Origin: an uncultured bacterium
GTDB taxonomy: Bacteria > Oederibacteriota > JAAXVQ01 > JAUVAV01
Direction of reading: 5' to 3'
Length of the DNA stretch: 64,000 bases
Assembly (NCBI GenBank): GCA_965371665.1
Contig: CBDUZI010000002.1
Location: 4,013 to 68,012, forward strand
Below are positions 6,257-60,530 of the stretch, piece by piece. Position numbers and translations under genes: made by a program. The notes under the pieces are model-generated. The model saw nothing but the letters and a program-made list of their open reading frames with translations. It had not been told where the DNA came from and did no database searches. How positions within the stretch are numbered: the first letter of the stretch is position 1; every line of letters starts with the position of its first letter.

Positions 6257-6309
6257 CAGAAAATTCCTTCACTATTTTTAAAACAGATTTAAAACCAGTC
6301 TCCGGGAAC

Positions 6310-6462
6310 TTGTCGGACTTTAGTCATTCTCCCCCTTTTGTAAAGGGGGCAGGGGGGATTTAATCAATAAAACACCCGCTTTTATATGCAAAATCCCCCT
6401 TAATCCCCCTTTTTCAAAGGGGGAATCTCAAAAAAAATGTCTTTGCCGTTAAGTCCGACAGG
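6310..6462. repeat. MITE-like element family C (CCCCCTTTT..AAAGGGGG hairpins, TIR TGTCGGACTT/AAGTCCGACA)
   Basis: Near-identical copies at 26405-26566, and inverted at 60355-60530. Bounded by the inverted repeat cttgtcggactttagtc...aagtccgacagg. Confidence 0.8.
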
Positions 6463-7588: not shown

Positions 7589-7639
7589 CTGCTCCGTTTT
7601 AGATAGTATCGGTTGCGGAAAGACTGGTTCTGAAAAGGT

Positions 7640-7790
7640 TGTCATACCCGAAAGATCGTATCCCTGGACTAAACCATCCAGGACAGGCGGGTATCCCGTG
7701 CCTTTTAGGCCTCAGAAAATCAAAGCCGCTGGATTCCCGCTAAAGGCATGCGGGAATGACAACTTAAAAAATATCCTTTCCGCAACAGAC
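7640..7790. repeat. MITE-like element family B (GTCAT(A/T)CC...GGAATGAC with TTCCGCAACAGA tail)
   Basis: Terminal inverted GTCATACCCG...CGGGAATGAC with internal GGATTCC motifs. Related copies at 21718-21860, 27880-28016, 39800-39910, 42792-42925 and 7966-8055. Confidence 0.8.
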
Positions 7791-10200: not shown

Positions 10201-10240
10201 TGTCACCAAAAGCCGTTTTTCAGAGAATTCCCCCGTTATT

Positions 10241-10358
10241 GTCATTCCGAGCGAAGCGAGGAATCTCCCGGAGCCCTGATAATTCAGGCGTTTTCTTGGA
10301 GATTCCTCGCTCCGCTCGGAATGACAAATCTAAGAAAACATGCTTCCGCAACAGATAC
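10241..10358. repeat. MITE family A (GTCATTCCGAGCGAAGCGAGGAATCTC ... GAGATTCCTCGCTCCGCTCGGAATGAC + TTCCGCAACAGATACTA tail)
   Basis: Long internal inverted repeat. Paralogs at 20790-20925, 29153-29296 (with intact TIR TCTGTTGCGGAAA/TTTCCGCAACAGA) and 52186-52272. Confidence 0.85.
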
Positions 10359-14691: not shown

Positions 14692-14720
14692 GTAGGGAAC
14701 GGTTTAAAACCGTTCCCTAC
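14692..14720. repeat. REP palindrome GTAGGGAACGGTTTAAAACCGTTCCCTAC
   Basis: Perfect 14-bp arms. A second copy lies at 15072-15100. The two flank the RAYT remnant. Confidence 0.85.
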
Positions 14721-14803
14721 AACATCGGCATTGAACCCCCGTCGACGCTCCGCCTCAGCGCGGACTATATATGTCCATCCAATATCCCGGGCGTATTTCC
14801 GCT

Positions 14804-15160
14804 TCATTCCGGCACAAAACGCGTATCAGGAAACGCTCGCGGATGTTCAATTTTAGTATCCGGATTTTCCTGATCCGTCTCCCAATTAACCGGGTTGTTA
14901 TTGATATATTCCCTAATCCGATTTAATTCACTATCATTACGGATTATGCGGTCGTGATAGGACTTCTGCCATTGAAACCGATTCACCGGATTGGATTGAT
15001 TGATATGCCGGGATGAAAATGTTTTAAATCCCCGGATTATTTCCGGCAATCCATGATATATATCCGCCGTTGTAGGGAACGGTTTAAAACCGTTCCCTAC
15101 AAAACCATCAATCCCACTAACAATATGCATTATTCCATGCACATGATTTGGCATAACCAC
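14804..15160 (-). mobile_element. REP-associated tyrosine transposase (RAYT/TnpA-REP, IS200/IS605-like HuH), N-terminally truncated remnant
   Basis: HuH motif MPNHVHGIMHI and catalytic-Tyr region WQKSYHDRIIRN. The N-terminal roughly 60 aa are missing, with an in-frame stop 15 nt upstream. A REP copy (15072-15100) lies inside the ORF (FVGNGFKPFPTT). Confidence 0.75.
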
Positions 15161-20724: not shown

Positions 20725-20789
20725 GTCTTATACTCTCCTGTTTTTATTGCTATTTCGTCCTGTTGCGAAAGCGTGTTTTTTTTAAGTTT

Positions 20790-20925
20790 GTCATTCCGAA
20801 CGTAGTGAGAAATCTCCACGGAAACGCCTGAACTATCAGGTCTCCGGGAGATTCTTCGCCTTCGGCTCAGAATGACAAAACGCGGGGAGTCCGCTAAAAA
20901 AATCTTTCTGCAAAAGATACTATTC
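20790..20925. repeat. MITE family A copy
   Basis: gtcattccgaacgtagtgagaaatctcc...ggagattcttcgccttcggctcagaatgac. Confidence 0.8.
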
Positions 20926-21681: not shown

Positions 21682-21950
21682 TCGCTATCTAGGAGCTTGA
21701 GCATTTAGTCGGTTTTTTAGGTTGTCATTCCCGAATGCTCTTATCCCTGGACTAAACCATCCAGGACCGGCGGGAATCCAGAAAAGCATTATTTTATAAG
21801 CATTGAAAAATCCCTGGATTCCGGCTTAAAGCATGCCGGAATGACAAAACGCACTAATTGCTCAAGCTCCTAGTTCCGGTTGCGGAAAGACAATTCTAGC
21901 GAACTGCCCGAATTTCGTCATTCCGCAACCCATACCATCTATCCTAAATC
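21682..21950. repeat. compound MITE: CTAGGAGCTTGAGCATTTAGTCGG-bounded element with a family-B core, plus a partial family-A copy
   Basis: ctaggagcttgagcatttagtcggtttttt at 21682-21712. Mirrored by cactaattgctcaagctcctag at 21852-21873. Confidence 0.7.
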
Positions 21951-26353: not shown

Positions 26354-26404
26354 GAAATTCCTCCCTTAATCGGCCCAAGACATGGTTAGTTTTTGTTTTG
26401 CTGG

Positions 26405-26566
26405 AAGTCTGTCGAACTTTAGTCATCCCCCCCCTTTTGTAAAGGGGGCAGGGGGGATTTAATCAATAAAACGCCCGCTTTCATATACAAATCCCCCTCA
26501 ATCCCCCTTTTCCAAAGGGGGAAGCAGGCAAAACCGACTAAATGCTCAAGCTCCTAGACTAATCCC
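26405..26566. repeat. MITE family C copy
   Basis: Near-identical to 6310-6462. Right end accgactaaatgctcaagctcctag. Confidence 0.8.
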
Positions 26567-27879: not shown

Positions 27880-28016
27880 GTCATTCCGGCGAAAGCCGGA
27901 ATCCAGGAAATCATTGTAATATAAGCAGTATGCGTCCTGGATCCCGGCCTGTCCTGGATGGTTTTGTCCAGGGATCAAGTCCGGGATGACAACCTTAAAA
28001 AGCTATTATGACACAG
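27880..28016. repeat. MITE family B copy
   Basis: gtcattccggcgaaagccggaatccagg ... ccgggatgac + AACCTTAAAAAGCTATTATGACACAG tail. Near-identical to 39800-39910. Confidence 0.85.
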
Positions 28017-28071: not shown

Positions 28072-29109
28072 CTATAACGAAAAACCCCCGCCCGGGTCAA
28101 GGTCTTTTCCTAGCTTCTTCCACCCCGGAGAGAGCCAAATTTTTCGCTCCCGATCCACGATGAGGCATTCACTACCGGGAATGGATAATACCAGGCTAAG
28201 GGCTTCTTCCGGCGGGAAATGCATAAGGACCGAGGCGGGTAAATCAATCTTGGTATCTTCCGGGAGCAATATGACAGCCGACATGCTGTAATTTTGCGGA
28301 CCGCCGGTCCGGGAATCCAAAATCGGATGGTACCGCCGGCCTTGCTTGATAAAATACCGCTGATAATCGCCGGCCTGCAAAATCTTCCCCTTCATCCAGG
28401 GAATCTTCCCCAGAAAACCTTTAGAATCGCGAGGATTCTGTATAGAAACCTGCCAGTACCCGCCTTCCGGCTTAAAACCGATTACCGCAACATTCCCTCC
28501 AATATCAACCCGGGCGGCTTGGATCTGGAATGTTTTTAAAAGCGCCCGCACCCGGTTTAAAGCATGGCTTATAAGCAGGTCATCCAGGTCGATTTGGACT
28601 CCTGACCGCTTAAACACTACTTTTTTCGCCTTTTGGTCAAGTGCTATGTATTTATAATTAACCACGGATTTGATCTGATCCAGGCGCAGGAAATTGGGAA
28701 CCCGGTAATCGCCTTGTCCGAAACCATATTGCCATTTAAAAGCGGCAATAGTAATATCATAAGCACCACGGGTTTTTTCCGATATCCTTTCTGACCATTG
28801 CAGTACCTCTATTGCCTCTTCGCTTACGGCTATTGGTTTTATAGCCGCGAACTGGTTGAGCTGATTTATTACGCTTCCCTGCCGGTAGGCGGAAAAAACA
28901 TTCTCGATCCGGTCTATTTCCGCAACTCCCGCCTGGATGGCCTTGGCACAGATCGTAACGTTCCGGGCCCAAACGGTCAGGCTTACGGTTGCTTCAAGTT
29001 TTTTCACTGTATGGGTAAGTTTTACCGGCTCAGCCGCTGGCGTCACAGCGCCCTGGGCAAATACCGGGCACCAAGCCCCTAATAATAAAATCAGTATGAG
29101 TCTTTTCAT
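28072..29109 (-). CDS. apbE: FAD:protein FMN transferase (ApbE family lipoprotein)
   Basis: Signal peptide MKRLILILLLGAWCPVFA. ApbE motifs GAYDITIAA, RVDIGGNVAVIG, HPILDSRTG. Confidence 0.85.
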   Translation of the reverse strand: MKRLILILLLGAWCPVFAQGAVTPAAEPVKLTHTVKKLEATVSLTVWARNVTICAKAIQAGVAEIDRIENVFSAYRQGSVINQLNQFAAIKPIAVSEEAIEVLQWSERISEKTRGAYDITIAAFKWQYGFGQGDYRVPNFLRLDQIKSVVNYKYIALDQKAKKVVFKRSGVQIDLDDLLISHALNRVRALLKTFQIQAARVDIGGNVAVIGFKPEGGYWQVSIQNPRDSKGFLGKIPWMKGKILQAGDYQRYFIKQGRRYHPILDSRTGGPQNYSMSAVILLPEDTKIDLPASVLMHFPPEEALSLVLSIPGSECLIVDRERKIWLSPGWKKLGKDLDPGGGFSL

Positions 29110-29409: not shown

Positions 29410-30606
29410 CTACAGAGGTACTCCATCGGTCCTGGGGGAAGGTACTGTGAAAATCTCAGCCAAGCAACTGCCCGCACTGGATTCATCGGAAAGCCTCACG
29501 ACTTTAATTAATTGCCTCCGAATCTCACTGGCTGTAGCCCCGAGATCAACGGTCGCAAACCGTATTTCATGCCCTTGAATCACCACAGACTCATCCATCA
29601 TCGCGTGTATCGATGGGTGCAAAAGAAGTCCCGCTGCATGAGCCGCAAGCGGATCGCCTTTACCTTCCTGAGATCGCAAGTAGGCATATATTTGATAAAC
29701 ATACCCGCTGCGTAATGATTCTTCTCTGTACCATCCCCGCGTAACGATCGAAGTAAACTTAGTGTCAATGACAATTCGCCGACCAGTACGCTGATGGTCA
29801 AGAACAACATCGGTACGCATTGACGGCAAAATTTTATCGATCCCAGATGTCTTATGTTCTATCAGCCAGCCGATCGCCTTCCCTGCATCGATACACCATC
29901 CAAAGTCCGATAGAACAACATCGTAAAAACCAGCAACAGCTTTTTCGTAAAGGCGTCTAACCCATGTAATTTCTCTGTCTGGCAGAGCAAGAAGTTTGGT
30001 GCCGGTTGTTTCTGTTGGAAGTGCCAAGTCAAAAGCAAGCTGCGCCGCTGCCACCATTTGTTGGTCATCGGCATCATGACGCCCAAAACGGTCAGCAGAC
30101 ACTTCAGCGCGGATGGGTTTTTCTCCTGTGACGCCCATCTGCTTTAAGCTACCGGCAAGAGCTCGGCATCGGTGTGCAAGGTCTAAACGTCCAACTATTT
30201 TGGCGATAACATCAAGCGCTGCTCGAACGAAGCGATTGCGTGATGTATTAACTGTGAGATCTTCAAATTGGCAAGCGACCATCCCTCGCGCAAGAAGCTG
30301 ATGACGCTCTGTTTTTAGAAAATCTATACGGCCACGGACCCGGCTAAGCACATTCCTTTTAGATTGGTATCCGAAACTCAAGTTGCGCTTCAGACGACGT
30401 TCGACTAATTGCACAAGAATCTCTGCTACTAAATCTGGAATGTCGTCGGGATTTTCCTCTACAGCGATTTTTTTTCGCCCAAGTTGTCGAAAGAGATCCG
30501 AAGCATAGAGCATCAAAAGCCATAGGTTGCGAACAGGTATCCGGCCGACATGACCACTCTCTAGAGGTGTTTCCAAGCTTATCGCGGATGCCTCTATAGT
30601 AGTCAC
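29410..30606 (-). CDS. mcrC: McrC-like PD-(D/E)xK endonuclease subunit of a McrBC-type (Type IV) restriction system
   Basis: 398 aa. Follows mcrB with a 2-nt gap. Nuclease core ...VVLD...RIVIDTKFTSI...YVYQIYAYL (D..(D/E)xK). Lower local GC. Confidence 0.8.
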   Translation of the reverse strand: MTTIEASAISLETPLESGHVGRIPVRNLWLLMLYASDLFRQLGRKKIAVEENPDDIPDLVAEILVQLVERRLKRNLSFGYQSKRNVLSRVRGRIDFLKTERHQLLARGMVACQFEDLTVNTSRNRFVRAALDVIAKIVGRLDLAHRCRALAGSLKQMGVTGEKPIRAEVSADRFGRHDADDQQMVAAAQLAFDLALPTETTGTKLLALPDREITWVRRLYEKAVAGFYDVVLSDFGWCIDAGKAIGWLIEHKTSGIDKILPSMRTDVVLDHQRTGRRIVIDTKFTSIVTRGWYREESLRSGYVYQIYAYLRSQEGKGDPLAAHAAGLLLHPSIHAMMDESVVIQGHEIRFATVDLGATASEIRRQLIKVVRLSDESSAGSCLAEIFTVPSPRTDGVPL

Positions 30607-30608
30607 TA

Positions 30609-33041
30609 TCAGAATCCTTCTGTTAACCGTTGTTGCGCTTTCTGAGCCTTGTCGCGAGCATCAAACCAATATTCATCGAGAAGTGGACCAATTTCAGTTT
30701 CAACAACTTGCCTAAACCATTCCCGCGCATCACTGATAGGTATCCTGAAAGGTGGTGTCACATAGCTGTGACCAATACGAAACTGACTGCCAAGACTCGT
30801 ATCTGCGGCGATCTCTTCGTTTAGCGACAGAATTCGCTTTTCAATTTCCGAAAGAATCTCCGAATCGATGCCACATTGCACATGGACCCAGTCATACCAT
30901 ATCTTTCCGAGTTTGGGCTCCAAGTTAACGAAAGCGAAGCGCCGCCTTAATGCCAGGTCAACAAGAGCAAGAGAACGGTCTGCGATGTTCATCGTGCCGA
31001 TGACATACAAATTGTCGGGGATAAAAACCCTCTCCCCTTCTGTTTGTCGATAGCAGAGCTCCAGCGCCTCCGCAGGTGTTCTTTTGTCTGCCTCGAGCAG
31101 CGTCAACATCTCACCGAATATCTGAGCGGGATTTCCTCGGTTAATCTCCTCAATAACAATGACGTGCCTAATCGTTGGTTCTTTGGATGCAGCCTTTACC
31201 ATTTCCATAAATGAACCATCGACCAGAGATAATTTCCCGTCTCCGGAAGGCCTCCACCCGCGCACAAAATCCTCATACGACAAATTTGGGTGAAACTGCA
31301 CAGCACGCACCTTGCTGTCGTTTCGCTCCCCCATCAGGGCAAAAGCTAAGCGTTTTGAAAGCCAGGTTTTACCGGTGCCCGGTGGTCCCTGGAGTATCAG
31401 GTTCTTTTTCGTCCTGAGACGTTCAAGAAGTCTTTCTAATTGTGAACGCTCTATAAAGCAGCCATCTTTCAAGATATCCTCTATTGAATAAGGTTCGATA
31501 GGAACTGAAATAATTTCTTCTGTTTCAAGATCATCATTTAAATTCTGGTCGGAGAATTCAAATTCCAGCCACTTGTACTTTCCCCTGGCGAGAAATCCAA
31601 TTTTTCCCTCGTCGCGCAGAACTTGAATCTGCTTATTAACTGAATATTCTATAGTATTGTTACTTGGGAATTCGTTTTTTAATTTCTGGAGATACTCTTC
31701 CTGAAACTCTTTTCCAGAAAATTCTGCTGACTGCTTTTTACGGCAGAGTTCGCGAATAAATGAATAAACCAGATTTCTCCAATTGCTGTTCTGTATCCTT
31801 TCTATATCCTCCGTATCTTGAAAACGCCATGCTTCCAGTGATAGCTCTGGGAAGGAATGAACCGGATAAGCCTCTTCCTGGAAACGCGCTTCTATTGTGT
31901 TAGTAACAGTGAGATAGTCATTTGCATTGCAACGGCTTTTGGGTCCATTAAGACCAATTTTAATTCCCAATTTTTTGTTGATATAGTGTTGGGACTGACC
32001 ATCAAGTGTTAGGTAATTCCAAGGACGAATCCAATAGAGTCCCATCGTGAGATTCCAGCCAACCCCCCACCTTCCTGTCGCGTTGTCATAGGCTTTTATA
32101 AATGCTGACCGGACGTTGGGATCTTCTGATTCAGCAGATTGTATCGCTTCCGCAAATATCTCCCAAAGCGCATCTATGTCGCCTGGCTGACGCTTATTCT
32201 CAAAGCCGAAAAACCAGGACCGCTGGTTGTTAAGAATAGGTATCCCTTCAAAGGACTCCGGCACCGGTTCATCTACACCCAGTAATTTCGCTAACTCTGC
32301 GGCAATTGTTTTCCGGTTGGCATCTGTAATGCCACGGGTGAAGATTCCCATTGTAGTAAATGGGCAGATGTCCTTCAATGGACCGGTTGAGCCGTCCGCA
32401 AATTGGTCCTGCAAATTCGAAAGCCCATCCACCCGTGCGGCTATGGCATGGATTCCAGCAACCAACTCGCCTCTCTTTTCACGGAAACCAACCAGTTTAT
32501 CCGCAACGGCCTCATAGAAACGTGTCCAATTGAATTGTCGCTTGTCAACTGCCCCATTACCGAATCGTCCCCTCCAATATGGCGCATTTCTAAACCGGTT
32601 CATATCCTGGGGTTTATCCTCAAAAGTAAAACTGATCAATGCGTCAGTCGTCCAATCCCCAGGCAAAACCCTCCAGATGGTACTCCTGGACGTATAGAAA
32701 TACCATTCGCGTGGTGTTTCAAGTCCGGTCCAATCAACCAGTACTTTGTGGCCATCGCCAGGATTTCCGGTTACCTTTCCAATGGCCTTAAGTGCCATAA
32801 CGGAAACTGTTTGCCCTCGGTTATCAAACGGCAAATCATGCTTGCGTGTATAGGAAGACTTGATTGCTATACGGTCACCTGGTTGGATCGACCTCACAGC
32901 ATCGAGATATCTGTCCTGATACCCATTTTCCCAGATTCCTTCCGCAAGAAATCTGGGCATTTGGTCATCAGTCCCACCGTAAGCGGCTCCAACAAACCAA
33001 CACACTCGAGCACCAGCTCCTTCTGGTTTTGCATTCATCAT
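30609..33041 (-). CDS. mcrB: McrB-like AAA+ GTPase with about 520-aa N-terminal extension
   Basis: 810 aa. Walker A LILQGPPGTGKTW. McrB signature YVIGTMNIADRSLALVDLALRRRFAFV in the C-terminal third. The N-terminal roughly 520 aa have no domain recognisable by eye. GGAGGA RBS. Confidence 0.85.
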   Translation of the reverse strand: MMNAKPEGAGARVCWFVGAAYGGTDDQMPRFLAEGIWENGYQDRYLDAVRSIQPGDRIAIKSSYTRKHDLPFDNRGQTVSVMALKAIGKVTGNPGDGHKVLVDWTGLETPREWYFYTSRSTIWRVLPGDWTTDALISFTFEDKPQDMNRFRNAPYWRGRFGNGAVDKRQFNWTRFYEAVADKLVGFREKRGELVAGIHAIAARVDGLSNLQDQFADGSTGPLKDICPFTTMGIFTRGITDANRKTIAAELAKLLGVDEPVPESFEGIPILNNQRSWFFGFENKRQPGDIDALWEIFAEAIQSAESEDPNVRSAFIKAYDNATGRWGVGWNLTMGLYWIRPWNYLTLDGQSQHYINKKLGIKIGLNGPKSRCNANDYLTVTNTIEARFQEEAYPVHSFPELSLEAWRFQDTEDIERIQNSNWRNLVYSFIRELCRKKQSAEFSGKEFQEEYLQKLKNEFPSNNTIEYSVNKQIQVLRDEGKIGFLARGKYKWLEFEFSDQNLNDDLETEEIISVPIEPYSIEDILKDGCFIERSQLERLLERLRTKKNLILQGPPGTGKTWLSKRLAFALMGERNDSKVRAVQFHPNLSYEDFVRGWRPSGDGKLSLVDGSFMEMVKAASKEPTIRHVIVIEEINRGNPAQIFGEMLTLLEADKRTPAEALELCYRQTEGERVFIPDNLYVIGTMNIADRSLALVDLALRRRFAFVNLEPKLGKIWYDWVHVQCGIDSEILSEIEKRILSLNEEIAADTSLGSQFRIGHSYVTPPFRIPISDAREWFRQVVETEIGPLLDEYWFDARDKAQKAQQRLTEGF

Positions 33042-33075
33042 TCATCCTCCCGGCGTTTTTTGAGACCTGACCTAT

Positions 33076-34617
33076 TCAATGCTTCTTACTTTGCTTTTTT
33101 ATGTACTCAGCGCCTTTCTTAGTAAGACGGTATTTTTGCAGACGGCTTTGTGGGCTGTCCGGGATGGTCCTTTCTATAAATCCCGCCTTTAGCGCGGGAA
33201 CCAGGTACAGTTTACGGAAATTTTCTTCGCTTTTAAGACCTAGGGCATCTTGAAACTGTTTGCGTTTCATCTCTCCCTTGCATATTTTAAGGAGTCGTCC
33301 GACTTCACCTGTGACTTCACCTGTGACTTCACCTGTGACTTCGGGGGTAGCTTGGGGGGTGACTTGCGGGGCTGTTCCTCCCACAGCCTCAAAAGCGCGC
33401 CCGGATTTCCGGCGAATCGTTATCACAAATCCGTCTGTTAGCCGGAACTCCGGTTCCTTGAGTCCTGCTTCGCGGCAGCGTTCAACCATATCGCTGATGC
33501 CGGTTCCCATGCGCTCAATATACTTTGTCAGATATAAAGGCTCGGCAATCAACGGATTGACAGGCACTGATCCATGCGGCTGGCGCAGCTTTTCCAATGT
33601 GAGCGGAGGCGGAAGAGTGCCGGGATTCCACACTTCCAGCCGGTCGGAAAAAAGCATGACCTGCACACTGCCATTGCTGGTATAGTCACGATGCGCCACG
33701 GCATTGACAATTGCTTCGGAAATCACTTCCGGGGGAATTTCATACGCCACCGGCGCCTGCGGTCCGCGAGCGCGCGTACCCACGGCTAAATCAATTTTTG
33801 AAAGAACAAAATTAACCGACTGGTTCACCAAGTCAAATAATGTACCCTTAAAGGTTTGATAGAAAGGAATGGGTTTTGAAACGCTTATGCCGTGAAAATG
33901 GGCGCATTTTACTTCAGACGAAATTAGAAAACGCTGCGGATTTTTCCCGAATAGAAGCATGGCCGCGTTGGTCGGGAGATCGTTTTTAAGCAAATTCAAA
34001 TGCGCCAGCACATCCCGCATTTTGGTGTCGTCCGTCAAGGGTAATCCGCGCGAGTGACGGGCAAGTTGAAGAAACCAGCTAATTTTCTCTTCAGATAGGT
34101 CTTCCAGTTTCGCATCACGGCACAACGCGGCGTCAAACGGCACGTCGCGAAGCAACTCATGCGCTGCTAAATAATCCACCAGCGCCGCGTAAACTCCTGC
34201 CATGAGCTCTGAAAATGTTGAAAACCTCCGGCGGATAAGCCGTGCGCCGGCGTGTTTCACGAGTGCGCGCATTTTCGGATGACGTTGGCTGTCATCCAGA
34301 CCTTTGACAAATATCAAACGATATTTTCCGCGCCTGGTTGCTTCATCAAACTCCTGATGCGTGGCCGAAAAACCATTCGCATCTTCAAGCCCGTATTGAT
34401 TCCCGAAAATGCCAATATAAACCTCACATCGCCCGATTTCGTTCATGTACAATGCCACCGCTGATTGATCCGCAGCAGCTTTGTCTTCAAACACAAACGG
34501 CTCAAAAAACCTCCGCAACATTGGATCAGCGCACAGATACTCGCGCAGGGCTGCGCGCGCCGCTTTAAACTCTTTTTGAACACTGCTAATGAATATTTTA
34601 TATTTCATTCGAGTCAT
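33076..34617 (-). CDS. DUF4062 (TIR/SLOG-like) - RecG-C-terminal-like (HATPase_c_4) - winged-HTH fusion protein
   Basis: 513 aa. N-term YKIFISSVQKEFKAARAALREYL...CEVYIGIFGNQYG matches the DUF4062 pattern (FISS...R.YG). Middle AAMLLFGKNPQRF...IVNAVAHRDYTSNGSVQVMLFSDRLEVWNPG matches the 'RecG C-terminal/HATPase_c_4' type of putative regulators. C-terminal wHTH ...SRLQKYRLTKKGAEYIKK. Stop lies 34 nt upstream of mcrB on the same strand. Confidence 0.7.
   Translation of the reverse strand: MTRMKYKIFISSVQKEFKAARAALREYLCADPMLRRFFEPFVFEDKAAADQSAVALYMNEIGRCEVYIGIFGNQYGLEDANGFSATHQEFDEATRRGKYRLIFVKGLDDSQRHPKMRALVKHAGARLIRRRFSTFSELMAGVYAALVDYLAAHELLRDVPFDAALCRDAKLEDLSEEKISWFLQLARHSRGLPLTDDTKMRDVLAHLNLLKNDLPTNAAMLLFGKNPQRFLISSEVKCAHFHGISVSKPIPFYQTFKGTLFDLVNQSVNFVLSKIDLAVGTRARGPQAPVAYEIPPEVISEAIVNAVAHRDYTSNGSVQVMLFSDRLEVWNPGTLPPPLTLEKLRQPHGSVPVNPLIAEPLYLTKYIERMGTGISDMVERCREAGLKEPEFRLTDGFVITIRRKSGRAFEAVGGTAPQVTPQATPEVTGEVTGEVTGEVGRLLKICKGEMKRKQFQDALGLKSEENFRKLYLVPALKAGFIERTIPDSPQSRLQKYRLTKKGAEYIKKQSKKH
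33301..33342. repeat. in-frame 12-bp tandem repeat (GACTTCACCTGT x3.5) encoding (EVTG)n linker
   Basis: Read directly. Translates to TPEVTGEVTGEVTGEV within the gene at 33076..34617. Confidence 0.9.
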
Positions 34618-34689
34618 TCCCTCTTAAACAAAGCCTTACCGCGAAAGTCTACATATCGGGAGAGATTTCTTCTCTTCATACCCCCAACT

Positions 34690-35210
34690 CCTCAAAATTC
34701 CTTTTAATGGTCGCTGCCAGTTGCACGGCCTCACTGACGTTTCTCGATAGCCTCAATATGCTCCAACTGCGCCATGATTATTCCTACCCTCTAATAGTAT
34801 TAGGGGAAGATCAGACCGTCCCCTATCCCCATGGATTCAATCCATGCATAATTGTCAATGGGCGGGCACACCCTTCGGCTTCGCTCAGGACAAGGAGGCC
34901 CGCGCCCCTGCAAATTCTTTCATGCCTCCGCAGGGGCCGGCTTCTTTATCCTGCCTGTCCTGAGCATAGCGAAGGGAGCCTGCCGAAGGGCATGCCGGCC
35001 CAGGGTTTCAATTCATGCGTGATCATTAATGAGCGGGCCCCTGCCTGCTCTTCATTGTATCTTGCCCGGACCGGACCGGTCAAGCTCGTCGGCCCACCAC
35101 ATAATTAAAGCGTCTTCCTGATTATCGTTATAGTAAGCCCGCCTGATCGCATCAGGTTAAAGCCGTGCTTCTCGTAAAGCCGGATGCACGGCTAAATTGA
35201 TAATATGCCT
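34690..35210. repeat. segmental duplicate of the rimI-proximal region (R) plus a rimI 3' fragment
   Basis: 34690-35100 aligns with 38225-38550 (shared hairpin-rich sequence: cttcggcttcgctcaggacaaggaggcc, gtcctgcctgtcctgagcatagcgaagggag, ccctgcaaattctttcatgc). 35100-35210 is a copy of the rimI 3' coding end (38590-38700 joined to 38800-38830, with an internal deletion). The junction lies directly at the mltA stop. Confidence 0.8.
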
Positions 35211-35212
35211 GA

Positions 35213-36090
35213 TCACTCCCCCTGCTTCTTTTTCACCAGCAGATAGAGCTTACCGTTATTTTTGAGATGTCCGGCGACATATTCATTTTGTCTGCCGGAT
35301 CCACAAAATAAATCTATCCGGTGCGGCCCGCGTATCGCTCCTCCCGTATCCTGGAACAATACAAAACGGCTGATTTGTTCTTCCCGGATTTGATTTCCCT
35401 GTTCATCAAACACTGGAACATTTACTTCAATATACCCCAATCCCCCAGATTATCCACCCAGCACAGTTCCCGGCTTTTTCCGGTCAGGGTATTTCCAAAA
35501 TCAATTTCCGACCGCGTATAATAAGGCACGACCTTATTTTCATCAGTCAAACGGCCCCTTATTTTATTGGGTTTTATGTCGGAATCTGTAATGACGGGGA
35601 AATCCTTCAGTCTCAAGCTTACCAGATCATCCGGTAATTTATACAGCGGATAACAATAGCGGTTGCTCCTTTCAAAGGATCCCCGCAAAGTCGGCATGCA
35701 ATATGCCGTAAAAAACACTTGGGCGTCGTAGGGAATATAACTATTGAAATTTCTATGGAGATAATCGTAAAATTGGGTGTTTAGTCCGTTCTGCTGGAGC
35801 ATGGCTTTGATTTCGATTAATGCGGATTTCATCTCCGGAACCGTGAAGGTGTCCTGGCCCACATGGATGAGATCTGTCTCGGCTTTAGTCGCATAATACT
35901 GCAGGCTCATGTCCAGGGCGTGATAAAGAGCTGGTAAATCGTCCGGATCGTCGATAAATTTGATATTCGTAATTGGTGTTGGTCGAAATGCATTTTGAGG
36001 TGTCCAATCCGCAGGCTTAAACCAGGTGGCGCAGCTGTTTAGTATCAATAAAAAAAGTGGAAATAAGAGAAGTTTTGCTAAATTCTTCAT
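35213..36090 (-). pseudogene. mltA: membrane-bound lytic murein transglycosylase A, frameshifted at a C5/G5 homopolymer (about 35444-35448)
   Basis: Two overlapping ORFs (35422..36090 lipoprotein N-terminal MltA domain; 35213..35440 3D domain with QDTGGAIRG). Adding one G in the GGGGG run restores ...WVDNLGGLGYIEVNVPV.... Either an authentic pseudogene or a homopolymer sequencing error. Confidence 0.7.
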
Positions 36091-36689
36091 TCCGCCTCCA
36101 TCTCAGGTCTGAACTGCTGCTTTCCGCCTATGCTGCTTTACCGGCCCTGCTCCGGCAGCTTAAAAAATCCGGGATTTTTTTTGAGCCTGAAAAGGCGCAG
36201 TTGCCTTATATTCATCTGAACACTATTTTTATCCCTGAAATGATTCCTCCCCACGAACTCCGCCGCCGCACTCAAGCCGAGATGGCGCTTAAAAATAAAA
36301 CCCTTCAGAAAATTGAAGAGCTTAACCCGGAAGCAAAAATAACCGCCGCTAATATTCTTGAGCAAACCTTACAAGACCTGCGTTTAAAACACCGGATTCA
36401 GGATGCCAAAATCAATCAAGCCCTTTTAAATCGAATTCCTTCCGGCGCTATAGTTAATCTTGTCCGCCCGAACTGGTTTCCGGAATCCCTGGGCACCCCT
36501 ATCCTGGTATCGCATATGGGCTTTGCCATATGGAAAAACAACCGTCTCTATTTTCGCCATGCCACTTCATCCGGCGCTAAGTGCGTAACTGATGTTTTGC
36601 TTACCGAATATCTTCAAAAATATTTACTAAGTCCCACCCTGAAAGGTATCAATCTCCTGAAAATCCAATCTCCGCTTGAGACTGAGTGA
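36057..36689 (+). CDS. hypothetical protein (possible DUF1460-like), start uncertain
   Basis: The GTG ORF start overlaps the divergent mltA N-terminus. A more likely start is the internal ATG near 36249 (MIPPHEL...). C-terminal region NWFPESLGTPILVSHMGFAIWKNNRLYFRHATS. Confidence 0.35.
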   Translation: MEIREVLLNSSFRLHLRSELLLSAYAALPALLRQLKKSGIFFEPEKAQLPYIHLNTIFIPEMIPPHELRRRTQAEMALKNKTLQKIEELNPEAKITAANILEQTLQDLRLKHRIQDAKINQALLNRIPSGAIVNLVRPNWFPESLGTPILVSHMGFAIWKNNRLYFRHATSSGAKCVTDVLLTEYLQKYLLSPTLKGINLLKIQSPLETE

Positions 36690-36829
36690 ATGTATTAGGA
36701 AGACGGTCTTTGCCTGCCACCCATTTTTGTTTTTCCGATTAGAACCGGATAACCTCCCCCAGGATATTTATCCCACCTGCCATCCTTATCCGATTATCTG
36801 AAGAACGTCCCCGGTTCACTCTGCTCTAT

Positions 36830-37225
36830 TCAATGCTTCTTACTTTGCTTTTTTATGTACTCAGCGCCTTTCTTAGTAAGACGGTATTTTTGCAAACGGC
36901 TGTTGGGCTTATCCGCGATAGTTCGTTCAACAAGTTTTTCAGATAAAATATCCTGAACCAATCTTTTCAGAGACCCTGTAACCTGTTTTCTGCCAACTTT
37001 CACAGATTTTTCAGACATGGAAAGTGGCTTATTTGTTAATGCCATTACACTTGACTCAAACCCTGACTGGGCTCTTGACTGGACCCTGGTGGCTTGCGCA
37101 ATCTCTTTTTGTGACCAGGCCGCAGCAAAAGCACCAGTTTCATCACTTGATGTTGAGGTCTCTAACTCGCTATAGAAATTCAGCAAATCGTTATTCTTCA
37201 TTCTCCAGTAATTTTGCGATTTCAT
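36830..37225 (-). CDS. small wHTH protein; probable 3' remnant of a paralog of the 33076..34617 gene
   Basis: C-terminal 27 aa (…SRLQKYRLTKKGAEYIKKQSKKH) and about 95 nt of DNA (36826-36920) are near-identical to the 3' end of gene 33076..34617 (33072-33165). The N-terminal half has no homology. Overlaps the YhcG stop by 35 nt. Confidence 0.4.
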   Translation of the reverse strand: MKSQNYWRMKNNDLLNFYSELETSTSSDETGAFAAAWSQKEIAQATRVQSRAQSGFESSVMALTNKPLSMSEKSVKVGRKQVTGSLKRLVQDILSEKLVERTIADKPNSRLQKYRLTKKGAEYIKKQSKKH

Positions 37226-38219
37226 CCGGCGACGGCAACTGGCCTTTCAGCTCTTTGGGCAGTCGTTTGACAATGCGATAGGTTGCCACCCCAATCGGCT
37301 TGCGCGCATCACGCAGGGCATACTCAACAACAGTACGTTTTTTCTCCTTGCACAGGATAATTCCGATGGCGGGTTTTTCACCCTTCTCACGCACCTGTTG
37401 GTCCAACGCTGCCAGATAAAACTGCATCTTGCCAACAAATTCGGGCTTAAATTCACCGATCTTCAGTTCAATCGCAACGAGACATTTCATACGGCGGTGG
37501 TACAACAACAAATCAATGAAATACTCCTTATCTTCCACCTCCAGCCGGAATTGGCTGCCGAGAAAGGCAAACAGACCTCCCATAGTCCGCAGAAAATCCT
37601 CGATCCGCGCAATAAGGGCGTGCTCCAGTTCCCGTTCGGAATGGTCATCGCCCAGTTCAAGAAAACCAAAGGTATATTCATCCTTCACGGCCAATTTAGC
37701 CTGAGATCGCTGTCTTGGCGTCAATGCGCAGTCGAAATTGGTCTGACCCAACAGGGTTTTTTCATAGCTTTGGTTTTCGATCTGATGGACAAGGACATTT
37801 TTGGACCAGCCGTATTTCTTCGCCATGCGAATATAGAACTCGCGTTCCAGAGGATCGTTGCAACGCTGTAAAACAATTATATTATGGGTCCAACCGATTT
37901 GTGCAACCAATGGTTGCACTTTCGTGATATCCCGGTAAGCATGATAGAATTCCCGCATGTAGTAAACATTCCTGCGGGAAAAGCCGCTTATGCCAGGAAA
38001 TTCACGTTGTAAATCAATTGCCAATTGTTTTACGATTGCATCACCGTGCTTACTATCCACTTGCCGCTCGGTAATCAGCCTGCCGATATCCCAATACAGG
38101 CCAATCAGTTCCTTATTTACCGCCTTAAGGGCCGTATATTGAGCGACACGAATACGCTCTTTGACCTCAAGCAGCAGGTCGATGTAAGACCTGGATAACT
38201 TGCTTTGAACCTTACTCAT
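37191..38219 (-). CDS. YhcG-family (DUF1016 + PD-(D/E)xK) putative nuclease
   Basis: 342 aa. N-term SKVQSKLSRSYIDLLLEVKERIRVAQYTALKAVNKELIGLYWDIGRLI is typical of DUF1016. C-terminal core FIDLLLYHRRMKCLVAIELKIGEF (D...ELK). Confidence 0.8.
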   Translation of the reverse strand: MSKVQSKLSRSYIDLLLEVKERIRVAQYTALKAVNKELIGLYWDIGRLITERQVDSKHGDAIVKQLAIDLQREFPGISGFSRRNVYYMREFYHAYRDITKVQPLVAQIGWTHNIIVLQRCNDPLEREFYIRMAKKYGWSKNVLVHQIENQSYEKTLLGQTNFDCALTPRQRSQAKLAVKDEYTFGFLELGDDHSERELEHALIARIEDFLRTMGGLFAFLGSQFRLEVEDKEYFIDLLLYHRRMKCLVAIELKIGEFKPEFVGKMQFYLAALDQQVREKGEKPAIGIILCKEKKRTVVEYALRDARKPIGVATYRIVKRLPKELKGQLPSPDEIAKLLENEE

Positions 38220-38553
38220 ATCCCCAACTCCTCAAATTTCCTTTTGATGGCCGCGGCCAGTTGCACGTAAGAATAATCATCCACCTGCTATCCTTATCCG
38301 AAGAACGTCCCCTGTCCCTGTAATCGTCAAGGGGCGGACTCGCCCTTCGACTTCGCTCAGAACAAGGAGGCCCACCCCTACAAATTCTTTCATGCAGCCC
38401 AGGGTTTCAATTCATGCGTATTCGTCAACGGTCAGGCCCACTTGTCCTGCCTGTCCTGAGCATAGCCGAAGGGAGCATGTCGAAGGGCGTGCCCGCCCAG
38501 GAATTTCGCAGCCCACTGATGGGCAACCACTGGGGGTTGCCCCTACAAATTCT

Positions 38554-39045
38554 TTACGGCGTCATGCCCGGACCGAACTGGTCAAGCTCGTCGGCCCACA
38601 TAATTAAAGCATCTTCCTTATTGTCGTTGTAGTAAGCCCGCCGGATCGCGATCAGCTTGAAACCGTGCTTCTCGTAAAGCCGGATGGCCGGCCGGTTGCT
38701 GGCCCGCACTTCCAAAGTGGCCCGCCGTGCGCCCAGTCGCATGGCCCATTTCATGGTGGCCAGCAATAGCCGTTCAGCTATTTGCCGCCGCCGGAAAGCC
38801 GGATGCACGGCTAAATTGGTAATATGGGCCTCATCCTGTACCAGCCAAAAACCCATGTATCCGATTACATGATTTTGCTGCCGCGCTATCAGGTAATGGC
38901 AGAGTTCCTGGTTTTTAACCTCTTCTTCGAACATGGCACGCGTCCAGGGCGAAGAGAAAGAGCTTTCCTCCACCCAGAGAATCTCATCCACATCTTCGGG
39001 ACGGACGGGCGTGATTTCAATGCCCGGCTCTTGCAATCTGGTCAT
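38554..39045 (-). CDS. rimI: ribosomal-protein-alanine N-acetyltransferase (GNAT)
   Basis: 163 aa. GNAT motif HITNLAVHPAFRRRQIAERLL. Overlaps tsaB by 4 nt. Confidence 0.85.
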   Translation of the reverse strand: MTRLQEPGIEITPVRPEDVDEILWVEESSFSSPWTRAMFEEEVKNQELCHYLIARQQNHVIGYMGFWLVQDEAHITNLAVHPAFRRRQIAERLLLATMKWAMRLGARRATLEVRASNRPAIRLYEKHGFKLIAIRRAYYNDNKEDALIMWADELDQFGPGMTP

Positions 39046-39799: not shown

Positions 39800-39910
39800 G
39801 TCATTCCGGCGAAGGCCGGAATCCAGAAAAGCATTGTAATATAACCGTATGCGTCCTGGATTCCGGCTTTCGCCGGAATGACAATCTTAAAAAACTATTA
39901 TGACACAGCC
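39800..39910. repeat. MITE family B copy
   Basis: gtcattccggcgaaggccggaatccag...cgccggaatgac + AATCTTAAAAAACTATTATGACACAG. Confidence 0.85.
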
Positions 39911-42791: not shown

Positions 42792-42925
42792 GTCATACCC
42801 GCATGTAGTAAGCGGGTATCCAGTGACTTTTAATTCCTTTAAAATCAAAGCCTCTGGATTCCCGATAAAAGCATTCGGGAATGACAACCTAAAAACCGAC
42901 TAAATGCTCAGGCTCCTGGTACTTT
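42792..42925. repeat. MITE family B/C compound copy
   Basis: gtcatacccgcatgtagtaagcgggtatcc...cattcgggaatgacaacctaaaaaccgactaaatgctcaggctcctgg. Confidence 0.8.
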
Positions 42926-52123: not shown

Positions 52124-52185
52124 CCTCCCAGAGTACGGATAAGAACTGTCGCCAATAAGCGTTTTCGTATTATTTCACCCCGTAT

Positions 52186-52272
52186 GTCATTCCGAGGCTC
52201 TGCCGAGGAATCTCATAGAGCACTTGTTAAGCAAGCGTTTGCTTGGAGATCCCTCGTTTCACTCGGGATGAC
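52186..52272. repeat. MITE family A copy
   Basis: gtcattccgaggctctgccgaggaatctc...gagatccctcgtttcactcgggatgac. Confidence 0.8.
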
Positions 52273-52328
52273 AAACTCACGGAATTTGTCTGAAAATACC
52301 TTTTGTCGACACTCCCTGATATATTAAC

Positions 52329-60354: not shown

Positions 60355-60530
60355 GGGCCTGAGCATTTAGTCGGTTTTTTTTAATTTCTGAGCAATAGAA
60401 CAATAGAAAATAGACCGCAATTGAGTTTTTTATTGCTCTATTGTTCTATTGTCAATTGCTCTGGAGTTTGAGCACTCTTCCCCCTTTGAAAAAGGGGGAG
60501 AATGACTAAAGTCCGACAGACTCCTAGGGG
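60355..60530. repeat. MITE family C copy (inverted) with internal perfect palindrome CAATAGAACAATAG / CTATTGTTCTATTG
   Basis: Ends ggggcctgagcatttagtcggtttt and gaatgactaaagtccgacagactcctagg. Confidence 0.8.

Follow-up and report, generated by a model that had tools for sequence, protein, structure and literature searches.

Probable scars of two type I restriction-modification operons beside an intact McrBC system in a decaying defense island

We analyzed a 64,000-nucleotide (nt) stretch of DNA from an uncultured bacterium of candidate division FCPU426 (assembly GCA_965371665.1, contig CBDUZI010000002.1, positions 4,013 to 68,012), here called the window, and focused on the defense locus that it carries between rimI and apbE. 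We conclude, with a probability of about 85%, that this locus is a decaying defense island that holds the remains of two type I restriction-modification (R-M) operons together with an intact McrBC system. It is neither a dedicated cassette system nor an integrase-borne element; it is essentially an ordinary decaying defense island that is unusually legible. The genes for YhcG, a 513-amino-acid (aa) DUF4062 protein, McrB, and McrC are full length, and the remainder is debris. A first-pass annotation of this DNA had described two units, a DUF4062 unit (unit A) and a YhcG unit (unit B), that share a 5′ leader and a 3′ winged helix-turn-helix (wHTH) module. The gene identities that it assigned hold by Pfam: McrC, McrB, the 513-aa protein with DUF4062, HATPase_c_4, and Fic-like_C domains, MltA, the AmiA-like protein, a 131-aa Fic-like_C open reading frame (ORF), YhcG, RimI, and TsaB.

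The leader carries the main evidence. Self-alignment of a 14-kb subregion recovered the shared leader of about 50 nt that had been reported, with positions 34676-34727 and 38216-38267 being 90.4% identical over 52 nt (E 3e-11). A degenerate pattern of the last 11 codons of the leader occurred at only these two sites in the window and in none of 100 shuffles. The same pattern matched 108 metagenome contigs (111 matches), and 96 of the 111 matches lay at the C terminus of a long ORF, about 705 to 790 aa where the ORF was complete, ending in ...FDFEEALREIHVELEDLNAEAVQLAATIKRNFEELG[IV] and a stop. A representative ORF of about 705 aa (locus L113) carries the Pfam domains HsdM_N and N6_Mtase, and proteins of the HsdM family concerned end in ...LNAEAVQLAATIKRNFEELG[IV] followed by the stop. 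Both leaders match about 100 hsdM tails at 82 to 96% nt identity, and at the protein level they match HsdM aa 687-705 and 690-705. We also found a 75%-identical tail on an Escherichia coli IncF plasmid, in an annotated hsdM-hsdS-recQ-dprA-hsdR operon. The leader is thus the scar of a deleted hsdM, whose 3′ end carries a Shine-Dalgarno (SD) sequence, GAGGAG, and the tetranucleotide ATGA.

On the coding (minus) strand of both leaders, the TGA of hsdM overlaps the ATG of the next ORF in this ATGA. In the metagenome loci, the gene that starts there was HsdS-like in 66 cases, YhcG in 13, and a Y1 transposase-like gene of the REP-associated tyrosine transposase (RAYT) type in 6, REP being a repetitive extragenic palindrome; rarer were SLFN_AlbA_2-HATPase_c_4-Fic-like_C (4 cases) and RhuM (3 cases). 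When 84 distinct intact hsdM genes were compared, the last five codons proved nearly invariant at their third positions (GAG GAG YTG GGG RTA TGA), and the upstream codons of the same genes varied freely. These frozen synonymous positions form the pattern that an SD sequence and a coupled start for the next gene would impose. In unit B, the SD sequence and the ATGA start both lie in the hsdM tail, and the proposal that the leader supplies the ribosome-binding site and ATG of YhcG holds. No leader-like sequence was found upstream of the YhcG homologues on an Anabaena plasmid and a Ralstonia plasmid, which argues that the leader is not intrinsic to YhcG. A scan of viral contigs with the leader pattern gave no matches.

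The two leaders need not be copies of each other, since their 5′ truncation points differ (16 hsdM codons in unit B and 18 in unit A) and each is nearer to foreign hsdM tails than to its partner. Tail B is closest to the hsdM tails of L121 and L176 (96%) and tail A to that of L170 (94.7%), and the two tails are 90% identical to each other. A tblastn search with a 705-aa HsdM found no hsdM similarity in the 64-kb window beyond the head and tail relics. No intact hsdM with both HsdM_N and N6_Mtase is present; 13 N-terminal and 16 to 18 C-terminal codons remain. We found no HsdS similarity with an E value below 0.25 in the window. The search for hsdR covered the annotated ORFs of 29-42 kb, none of which is of HsdR type. 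Judged by its gene content, the locus is not predicted to form a functional type I R-M system.

Unit A retains both ends of its hsdM. The head relic reads ATG GCG CAG TTG GAG CAT ATT GAG GCT ATC GAG AAA CGT (34775-34737), intact HsdM proteins begin with M[A/P/S]QLEHIEAIEKRLW..., and the 5′ end of the L122 hsdM matches the relic at 84% nt identity. Because the start and the tail are both kept and are joined across a 4-nt filler, the unit A hsdM has lost about 2 kb internally. Comparable deletions that leave the N terminus and the tail of hsdM precede YhcG in L107 and L142. We observed separately that L093 and L125/L127/L178 keep only 62 to 88 codons of the hsdM 3′ end in front of YhcG. Orphaned ΔhsdM-YhcG modules seem to be common in unrelated metagenomes.

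Leader A had been described as supplying only a 21-codon ORF, and we located this upstream ORF (uORF) at 34679..34614. As a candidate 5′ relic of hsdS the uORF was rejected; a hidden Markov model of 31 HsdS N termini scored it no better than 500 shuffles. The 513-aa protein that follows has thousands of homologues with the same architecture, and it aligns at 97 to 100% coverage with more than 100 homologues that carry the same Pfam set. In the three closest homologues examined (65 to 67% identical), the gene order is hsdM-[ATGA]-gene-110 aa-hsdS, and in L198 hsdR lies further downstream. The 513-aa gene also contains a 12-nt unit (GACTTCACCTGT) in four consecutive copies at 33301-33348, the last copy being imperfect, which encodes an (EVTG)n linker. 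Its homologues have other short-repeat linkers at the same place, for example, QVTA and ESRL repeats.

In unit B, the hsdM tail leads directly into an intact YhcG gene, and we found no hsdM head relic. The YhcG protein matched the PADLOC candidate system PDC-S02 over essentially its full length (4e-147, profile positions 3-340 of 346). The window aligns with L142, L127, L125, L132, and L112 without a break, starting in the hsdM tail and continuing across the ATGA as far as the YhcG 3′ end, at 70 to 72% nt identity, and the YhcG proteins after the hsdM tails in these loci are 72 to 75% identical to that of the window. This unbroken alignment indicates that tail-ATGA-YhcG is an inherited type I arrangement. 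In a different setting, on plasmid pANA02 of Anabaena sp. 90 (L082), a 64%-identical YhcG homologue lies between cas3′ and cas10d in a type I-D CRISPR-Cas operon and is adjoined by a HepT-like RNase gene.

Downstream of YhcG lies the 3′ stump of a second accessory gene. Homology to an SLFN_AlbA_2-HATPase_c_4-Fic-like_C protein of L129 (aa 408-505, tblastn E 6e-13) begins about 30 nt past the YhcG stop. The stump lies within the 131-aa ORF, whose first approximately 20 codons precede the SLFN homology and include an out-of-frame overlap with the 3′ end of YhcG. A repeat of about 35 nt, segb, flanks the block of tail B, YhcG, and stump on both sides. Its copies align as two blocks at 91 to 95% identity split by an 8-nt indel, with a local score of 28.5, whereas 100 shuffles reached at most 22. 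A repeat had been noted here at 36758-36806 and 38268-38308; the repeat is real, but its better coordinates are 36773-36815 and 38281-38315. We looked for segb and for the unit A 5′ untranslated region (UTR) in the hsdM upstream regions of other loci and found no matches.

The shared 3′ module proved to be real in that both wHTH copies encode ...RLQKYRLTKKGAEYIKKQSKKH and a stop, the same tail with which ORF 36830..37225 ends. The reported identity of about 98% did not hold, however, since over 33072-33165 and 36826-36919 we measured 93.7% (95 aligned columns, 2 gap openings). Self-alignment gave 88.6% for the longer pair 33067-33179 and 36821-36933. The identity is concentrated in a perfect 69-nt patch, which comprises the final base of the preceding codon, the last 21 sense codons, the stop, and 4 nt. 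Upstream of the patch, about 40 nt align at about 78%, and beyond that there is no alignment at the nucleotide or the protein level. Thus, the two wHTH regions do not represent the termini of a single duplicated module. Family members elsewhere lack the C-terminal extension KKGAEYIKKQSKKH. Because all other duplicated parts of the locus are only 73 to 91% identical, the exchange that produced the patch was probably recent, and the patch is best read as a recent gene conversion tract or crossover between two different wHTH alleles. The shared 3′ module is the wHTH C terminus of two different alleles of one accessory gene type.

These results bear on a model in which gene bodies are swapped in situ between two conserved handles, the leader on the 5′ side and the wHTH tail on the 3′ side, with units A and B as occupants of one duplicated cassette site. 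The perfect patch fits such a model, as it shows recent exchange between the two wHTH tails. Moreover, hsdM tails do act as recombination junctions elsewhere: L128 and L133 form a filled and empty pair, the RAYT and REP insert being bordered by duplicate copies of a 63-nt tail, with identity changing at the tail from 85% upstream to 98% downstream, and in 11 of the 108 loci two hsdM tail copies surround an inserted gene or REP. In those loci, however, the 3′ flank of the cassette is a second hsdM tail and not a wHTH. Within the window, the leaders end at different 5′ points and resemble foreign hsdM tails more than each other, unit A retains the hsdM start, the unit B wHTH is the stump of a second gene and not the end of the YhcG unit, and the wHTH regions cannot be aligned past the patch and the 40 nt or so upstream of it that are about 78% identical. 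We consider the handle model improbable. The first-pass reading of recombination or cassette replacement at a defense hotspot therefore stands for repeated recombination at a variable site, seen by comparison with L003 and L002 and in the 69-nt footprint, and falls for two cassettes between common handles: the leaders are separate hsdM relics with different truncation points, and the unit B wHTH is a separate gene stump.

The other large repeat in the locus is that of the rimI 3′ end and its hairpins, which had been reported and which self-alignment confirmed. Positions 34849-35192 and 38321-38692 are 73% identical over 379 columns (E 1e-60), and a further pair, 35173-35214 and 38792-38835, is 88.6% identical. 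The decayed copy, rimI′, has lost 119 nt between two CATCCGGCTTT repeats; it also lacks 1 nt and has gained an insertion of 3 nt. It does adjoin the mltA stop codon, as noted, but the junction is exact only to within about 5 nt. Related REP-like hairpins also follow rimI in L002, a metagenome-assembled genome of FCPU426 whose RimI is 95% identical to that of the window, which indicates that the rimI 3′ end with its REPs is native sequence present twice. The two copies of this junction differ by 8% in rimI and by 20 to 27% in the REPs.

We compared rimI, rimI′, and the L002 rimI at 145 sites and found 7 changes specific to the resident gene (6 synonymous), 5 specific to the fragment (all nonsynonymous), and 12 specific to L002. 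This split suggests that the resident rimI is under purifying selection and that the fragment is decaying. At the 145 sites, it differs from the resident rimI at 12 and from L002 at 17, counts that are too small to separate in situ duplication from import. By these figures, the split of rimI and rimI′ appears to be old (8%) yet younger than the split from L002. Next to rimI′, the mltA gene has its MltA domain (Pfam positions 1-83 of 163) and its 3D domain in different frames, and its alignment to PDB 2g5d passes from chain residue 232 straight to 343. The AmiA-like ORF lacks its N-terminal half and is called as 162 aa in public assemblies. We regard mltA, the AmiA-like gene, and rimI′ as pseudogene debris.

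Direct repeats that contain the 3′ part of a housekeeping gene and flank a segment of about 3.5 kb could also be the attL and attR of an integrative mobile element inserted in the rimI 3′ end, and defense islands often ride on such elements. However, no integrase or recombinase is found among the ORFs of 29.4-39.0 kb, all of which are assigned. The repeats are not short and near identical, as att sites would be, but are longer than 500 nt, 8 to 27% diverged, decayed by indels, and begin in mid-gene, and the segment between them is mostly pseudogene debris. An inserted element is thus very unlikely.

The structure was reproduced base for base in three independent metagenome assemblies, from different samples, whose contigs show 100% identity to the window through both units and every junction: ERZ25073602 (L001/L196), ERZ25748748 (L193), and ERZ23498918 (L194). 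A Logan contig from SRR21487743 (L192) also spans the unique junction of mltA and rimI′ and covers 38605-34929 at 99.75%. Metagenomic data, an exact repeat of 69 nt, REP elements, and the departure of L192 from the window path inside a REP into secF and secD could all speak for a collapse or misjoining of two strain haplotypes of the rimI-downstream region. In view of the contigs above, we give this explanation hardly any weight, and simple misjoining cannot give two direct repeat copies in a linear path (x-R-y-R-z). The departure in L192 (3636-6088) lies in the REP block after rimI′ and runs into a convergent secF-secD pair that is absent from the window; it reflects rearrangement through a REP or else a chimeric assembly.

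The rimI-to-apbE interval is 9.4 kb in the window. In L003, a distant relative (RimI 61% identical), the order is rimI, a 70-aa cold-shock-like ORF, apbE, and the next gene of the window, with apbE about 420 nt past rimI and 41% identical to that of the window. In L002, a closer relative (about 88% nt identity), rimI and the REPs are followed by a convergent repetitive gene; its content differs from that of the window, and the contig stops 1.2 kb past rimI inside this gene, so that the ancestral state of the whole region is not visible there. As gene content differs in both relatives, we define the 9.4-kb stretch as a variable region.

Returning to the decaying defense island, we read the locus as one in which deletion removed the R-M core but spared the accessory genes. 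Unit B consists of the last 16 hsdM codons, YhcG, and the 3′ stump of an SLFN/HATPase_c_4-wHTH gene. Unit A consists of the hsdM 5′ UTR and first 13 codons, a deletion, the last 18 codons, the 21-codon uORF, the intact DUF4062 gene, and McrBC. Each relic operon would lie behind its own copy of the chromosomal junction of rimI 3′ end and REP hairpins, the second copy of which may have arisen by one nonhomologous join between the mltA stop and rimI nt ~210. This join could stem from an old segmental duplication or from import of the same locus from a relative via one-sided homology. The type I-derived contents of the two copies would have been acquired separately. The SD sequence and ATGA of the hsdM scar probably drive YhcG translation, and the 513-aa gene may be translated via the uORF chain or from its own SD sequence. 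YhcG, the DUF4062 protein, and McrBC are now presumably independent stand-alone defense genes.

Several observations weigh against this history. We found no remnant of hsdS or hsdR, and the word operon rests on the hsdM scars and accessory genes. The DUF4062 gene may not be the original neighbor of the unit A hsdM, because it lies 58 nt from tail A and its three closest homologues follow HsdMs with other C termini. The segb repeats that flank the unit B block have no place in this history. Finally, the six synonymous changes on the resident rimI branch against none on the fragment branch form an odd asymmetry.

If the history is right, what looks like a mosaic of shared modules becomes a readable record of type I operons gutted by deletions. 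When unrelated defense genes share a short leader, that leader can be a scar left by an upstream gene that has disappeared and not a regulatory or recombination element, and orphan YhcG-type genes may owe their ribosome-binding sites to hsdM scars.

Beyond the window, the survey of 108 loci suggests that defense genes have repeatedly been inserted, flanked by tails, at the hsdM/hsdS junction. Where an insert is present, the HsdS gene behind it still has a tail relic of 17 to 32 codons in front. We tentatively raise the idea, which we think has the odds against it, that the last 50 to 90 nt or so of hsdM, with the SD sequence and ATGA, are a portable junction module, that is, an integrase-free, homology-driven cassette system for defense genes. 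YhcG, SLFN/HATPase_c_4, RAYT, and even bare REP sequences may sit between two tail copies in this way. If so, inserts would keep hsdS translationally coupled, homologous recombination between tails could relocate, eliminate, or exchange them, and upon decay of the R-M core the tail would remain as the expression signal of an orphan gene, as in the window. The tails would then offer a simple sequence signature for mining accessory defense genes and a testable model of movement without a dedicated recombinase. We found no description of a tail-flanked cassette arrangement in the literature searched, coverage of which was incomplete.

Further observations were made at these junctions. In L104, L160, L162, and L165, RAYT ORFs are fused in frame to the hsdM tail relic at the same junction (...RENP joined to [E/D/N]A[V/L]...); the fusion proteins end with the HsdM C-terminal peptide, and the ATGA coupling to hsdS is kept. 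In L123 (376-646), two hsdM tails enclose a bare REP-like element and no gene, and a 71-aa ORF runs from the REP into the duplicated tail. L113 (3363-10341) has two complete identical hsdM-rhuM units 3.9 kb apart, from tandem duplication or an assembly loop. The window itself carries a 118-aa RAYT-like ORF (IS200/Y1, HUH motif) at 14804-15160 on the minus strand, apparently short at its N terminus. It is 38% identical to RAYTs that follow hsdM in metagenome loci and has near-perfect inverted repeats of 29 to 33 nt at 14692-14722 and 15069-15102.

The coordinates of all features are collected in Table 1. Intergenic repeats that resemble REPs or miniature inverted-repeat transposable elements (MITEs) are dispersed across the 64-kb window; they fall into at least four families and are often palindromic. 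One of them is the palindrome GTCATTCCGGCGAAGGCCGGAATCCAG between tsaB and tsaE. A promoter and terminator scan gave counts equal to the shuffled expectation. An Rfam scan of 32.9-39.2 kb found no family and a single subthreshold chance match, and we therefore rejected the leader and the hairpins as a known RNA.

Table 1. Features of the rimI-apbE locus and dispersed repeats of the window
Feature	Coordinates	Strand	Details
apbE	28072..29109	-	Right border of variable region; PF02424
McrC	29410..30606	-	Pfam McrBC 3.2e-19
McrB-like GTPase (DpnI_C-like reader and AAA_5)	30609..33041	-	Pfam AAA_5 5e-28; DUF8425 and McrB_lid recorded
Perfect 69-nt patch	33072..33140 = 36826..36894	-	100% identical
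DUF4062-HATPase_c_4-Fic-like_C (wHTH) gene (513 aa), intact	33076..34617	-	Pfam, full three-domain architecture
uORF, 21 codons	34614..34679	-	Starts at tail A ATGA; stop overlaps (ATGA) first ATG of DUF4062 ORF
hsdM tail relic A, last 18 codons (EAVQLAATIKRNFEELGV, stop), with SD and ATGA	34676..34732	-	Up to 94.7% to L170
Filler, 4 nt, between hsdM head and tail relics	34733-34736		
hsdM head relic, ATG and first 13 codons (MAQLEHIEAIEKR)	34737..34775	-	Equals N termini of intact HsdMs; tblastn HsdM aa 2-14
REP/MITE-like hairpin block A	34827..35050	-	Diverged copy of block B
rimI′, degraded duplicate of rimI nt ~210-492	35051..35214	-	
mltA pseudogene, overlapping ORFs of 222 and 75 aa	35213..36090	-	Frameshifted; about 110 internal residues gone
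AmiA-like amidase fragment	36201..36689	+	N-terminally truncated; Pfam profile positions 100-198 of 202
segb′	36773..36815	-	Second copy of segb; 8-nt internal tandem insertion
3′ stump (about 110 codons) of SLFN/HATPase_c_4-wHTH gene	36830..37159	-	Within 131-aa ORF 36830..37225; Pfam Fic-like_C 3.8e-8
YhcG/DUF1016 PD-(D/E)XK nuclease (342 aa), intact	37191..38219	-	Pfam DUF1016_N and YhcG_C; PADLOC PDC-S02
hsdM tail relic B, last 16 codons (VQLAAAIKRKFEELGI, stop), with SD GAGGAG and ATGA	38216..38266	-	82-96% nt to about 100 loci; tblastn HsdM aa 690-705
segb, about 35 nt after REPs	38281..38315	-	Direct repeats D18, D20; repeated at 36773-36815
REP/MITE-like hairpin block B	38321..38553	-	Nested inverted repeats I7; direct families D2, D4, D9; native to rimI 3′ flank
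rimI (163 aa), intact	38554..39045	-	Left border of variable region; Pfam Acetyltransf_1 1.8e-24
Dispersed repeat family	6305-6425, 26403-26523, 60477-60522		
Dispersed repeat family	10216-10354, 20760-20901, 52147-52275		
Dispersed repeat family	7636-7770, 21691-21779, 42812-42917, 27937-28001		
Dispersed repeat family	27880-27948, 39800-39882		

Compared with known systems, related loci resemble integron cassettes in that promoterless genes lie at a fixed junction flanked by a repeated short sequence. In contrast to integrons, there is no IntI integrase and no attC-like imperfect palindrome, and what is repeated at the flanks is the coding tail of a gene, whose 5′ end point varies (16 to 32 codons). 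These variable ends point to homologous or illegitimate recombination and selection, not to site-specific recombination. In the window, we found no recombinase ORF in 29-42 kb and no Rfam or structured element that would make the locus an integron or site-specific array. In homology-facilitated illegitimate recombination, known from naturally transformable bacteria, a one-sided anchor and a nonhomologous join leave a displaced, duplicated piece of the anchor. In the window, rimI′ would be the displaced piece of the anchor gene, a likeness that we infer, as in situ segmental duplication explains the same footprint.

The E. coli K-12 immigration control region consists of hsdRMS-mrr-mcrBC. The window likewise clusters type I R-M and McrBC genes in one variable chromosomal island, and its McrB-like AAA_5 GTPase gene and adjoining mcrC (PF10117), with 2 nt between them, are predicted to form a type IV McrBC system. 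It differs in its host, candidate division FCPU426, in its degraded type I part, and in its flanks, rimI and apbE. In EcoKI, hsdM and hsdS overlap with translational coupling (PMC3510504). The window shares the overlap of the hsdM stop with the next start (ATGA) and the SD sequence inside the hsdM coding tail, the synonymous positions of which are almost frozen in the metagenome family. In contrast to EcoKI, its HsdM family is about 705 aa long and ends in ...NFEELG[IV] and a stop, the tail persists without hsdM and leads into YhcG or a 21-codon uORF, and the coupling is predicted.

DUF1016 and RhuM proteins are associated with type I systems (PMC9881135), and toxins or second-line defense genes are embedded in R-M operons (PMC3710099). 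Type I R-M operons with accessory genes, such as PrrC in the prrI hsd locus or the DUF1016/YhcG, RhuM, and Schlafen-like genes that neighbor hsdM/hsdS, are the closest match to what we found, in that YhcG or a HATPase_c_4-wHTH gene directly follows hsdM and starts at its stop. The window differs in that it keeps only hsdM scars, with no hsdS or hsdR found and with its accessory genes orphaned. Taken together, these comparisons suggest that the locus arose from type I R-M operons, with accessory genes embedded in them, next to McrBC.

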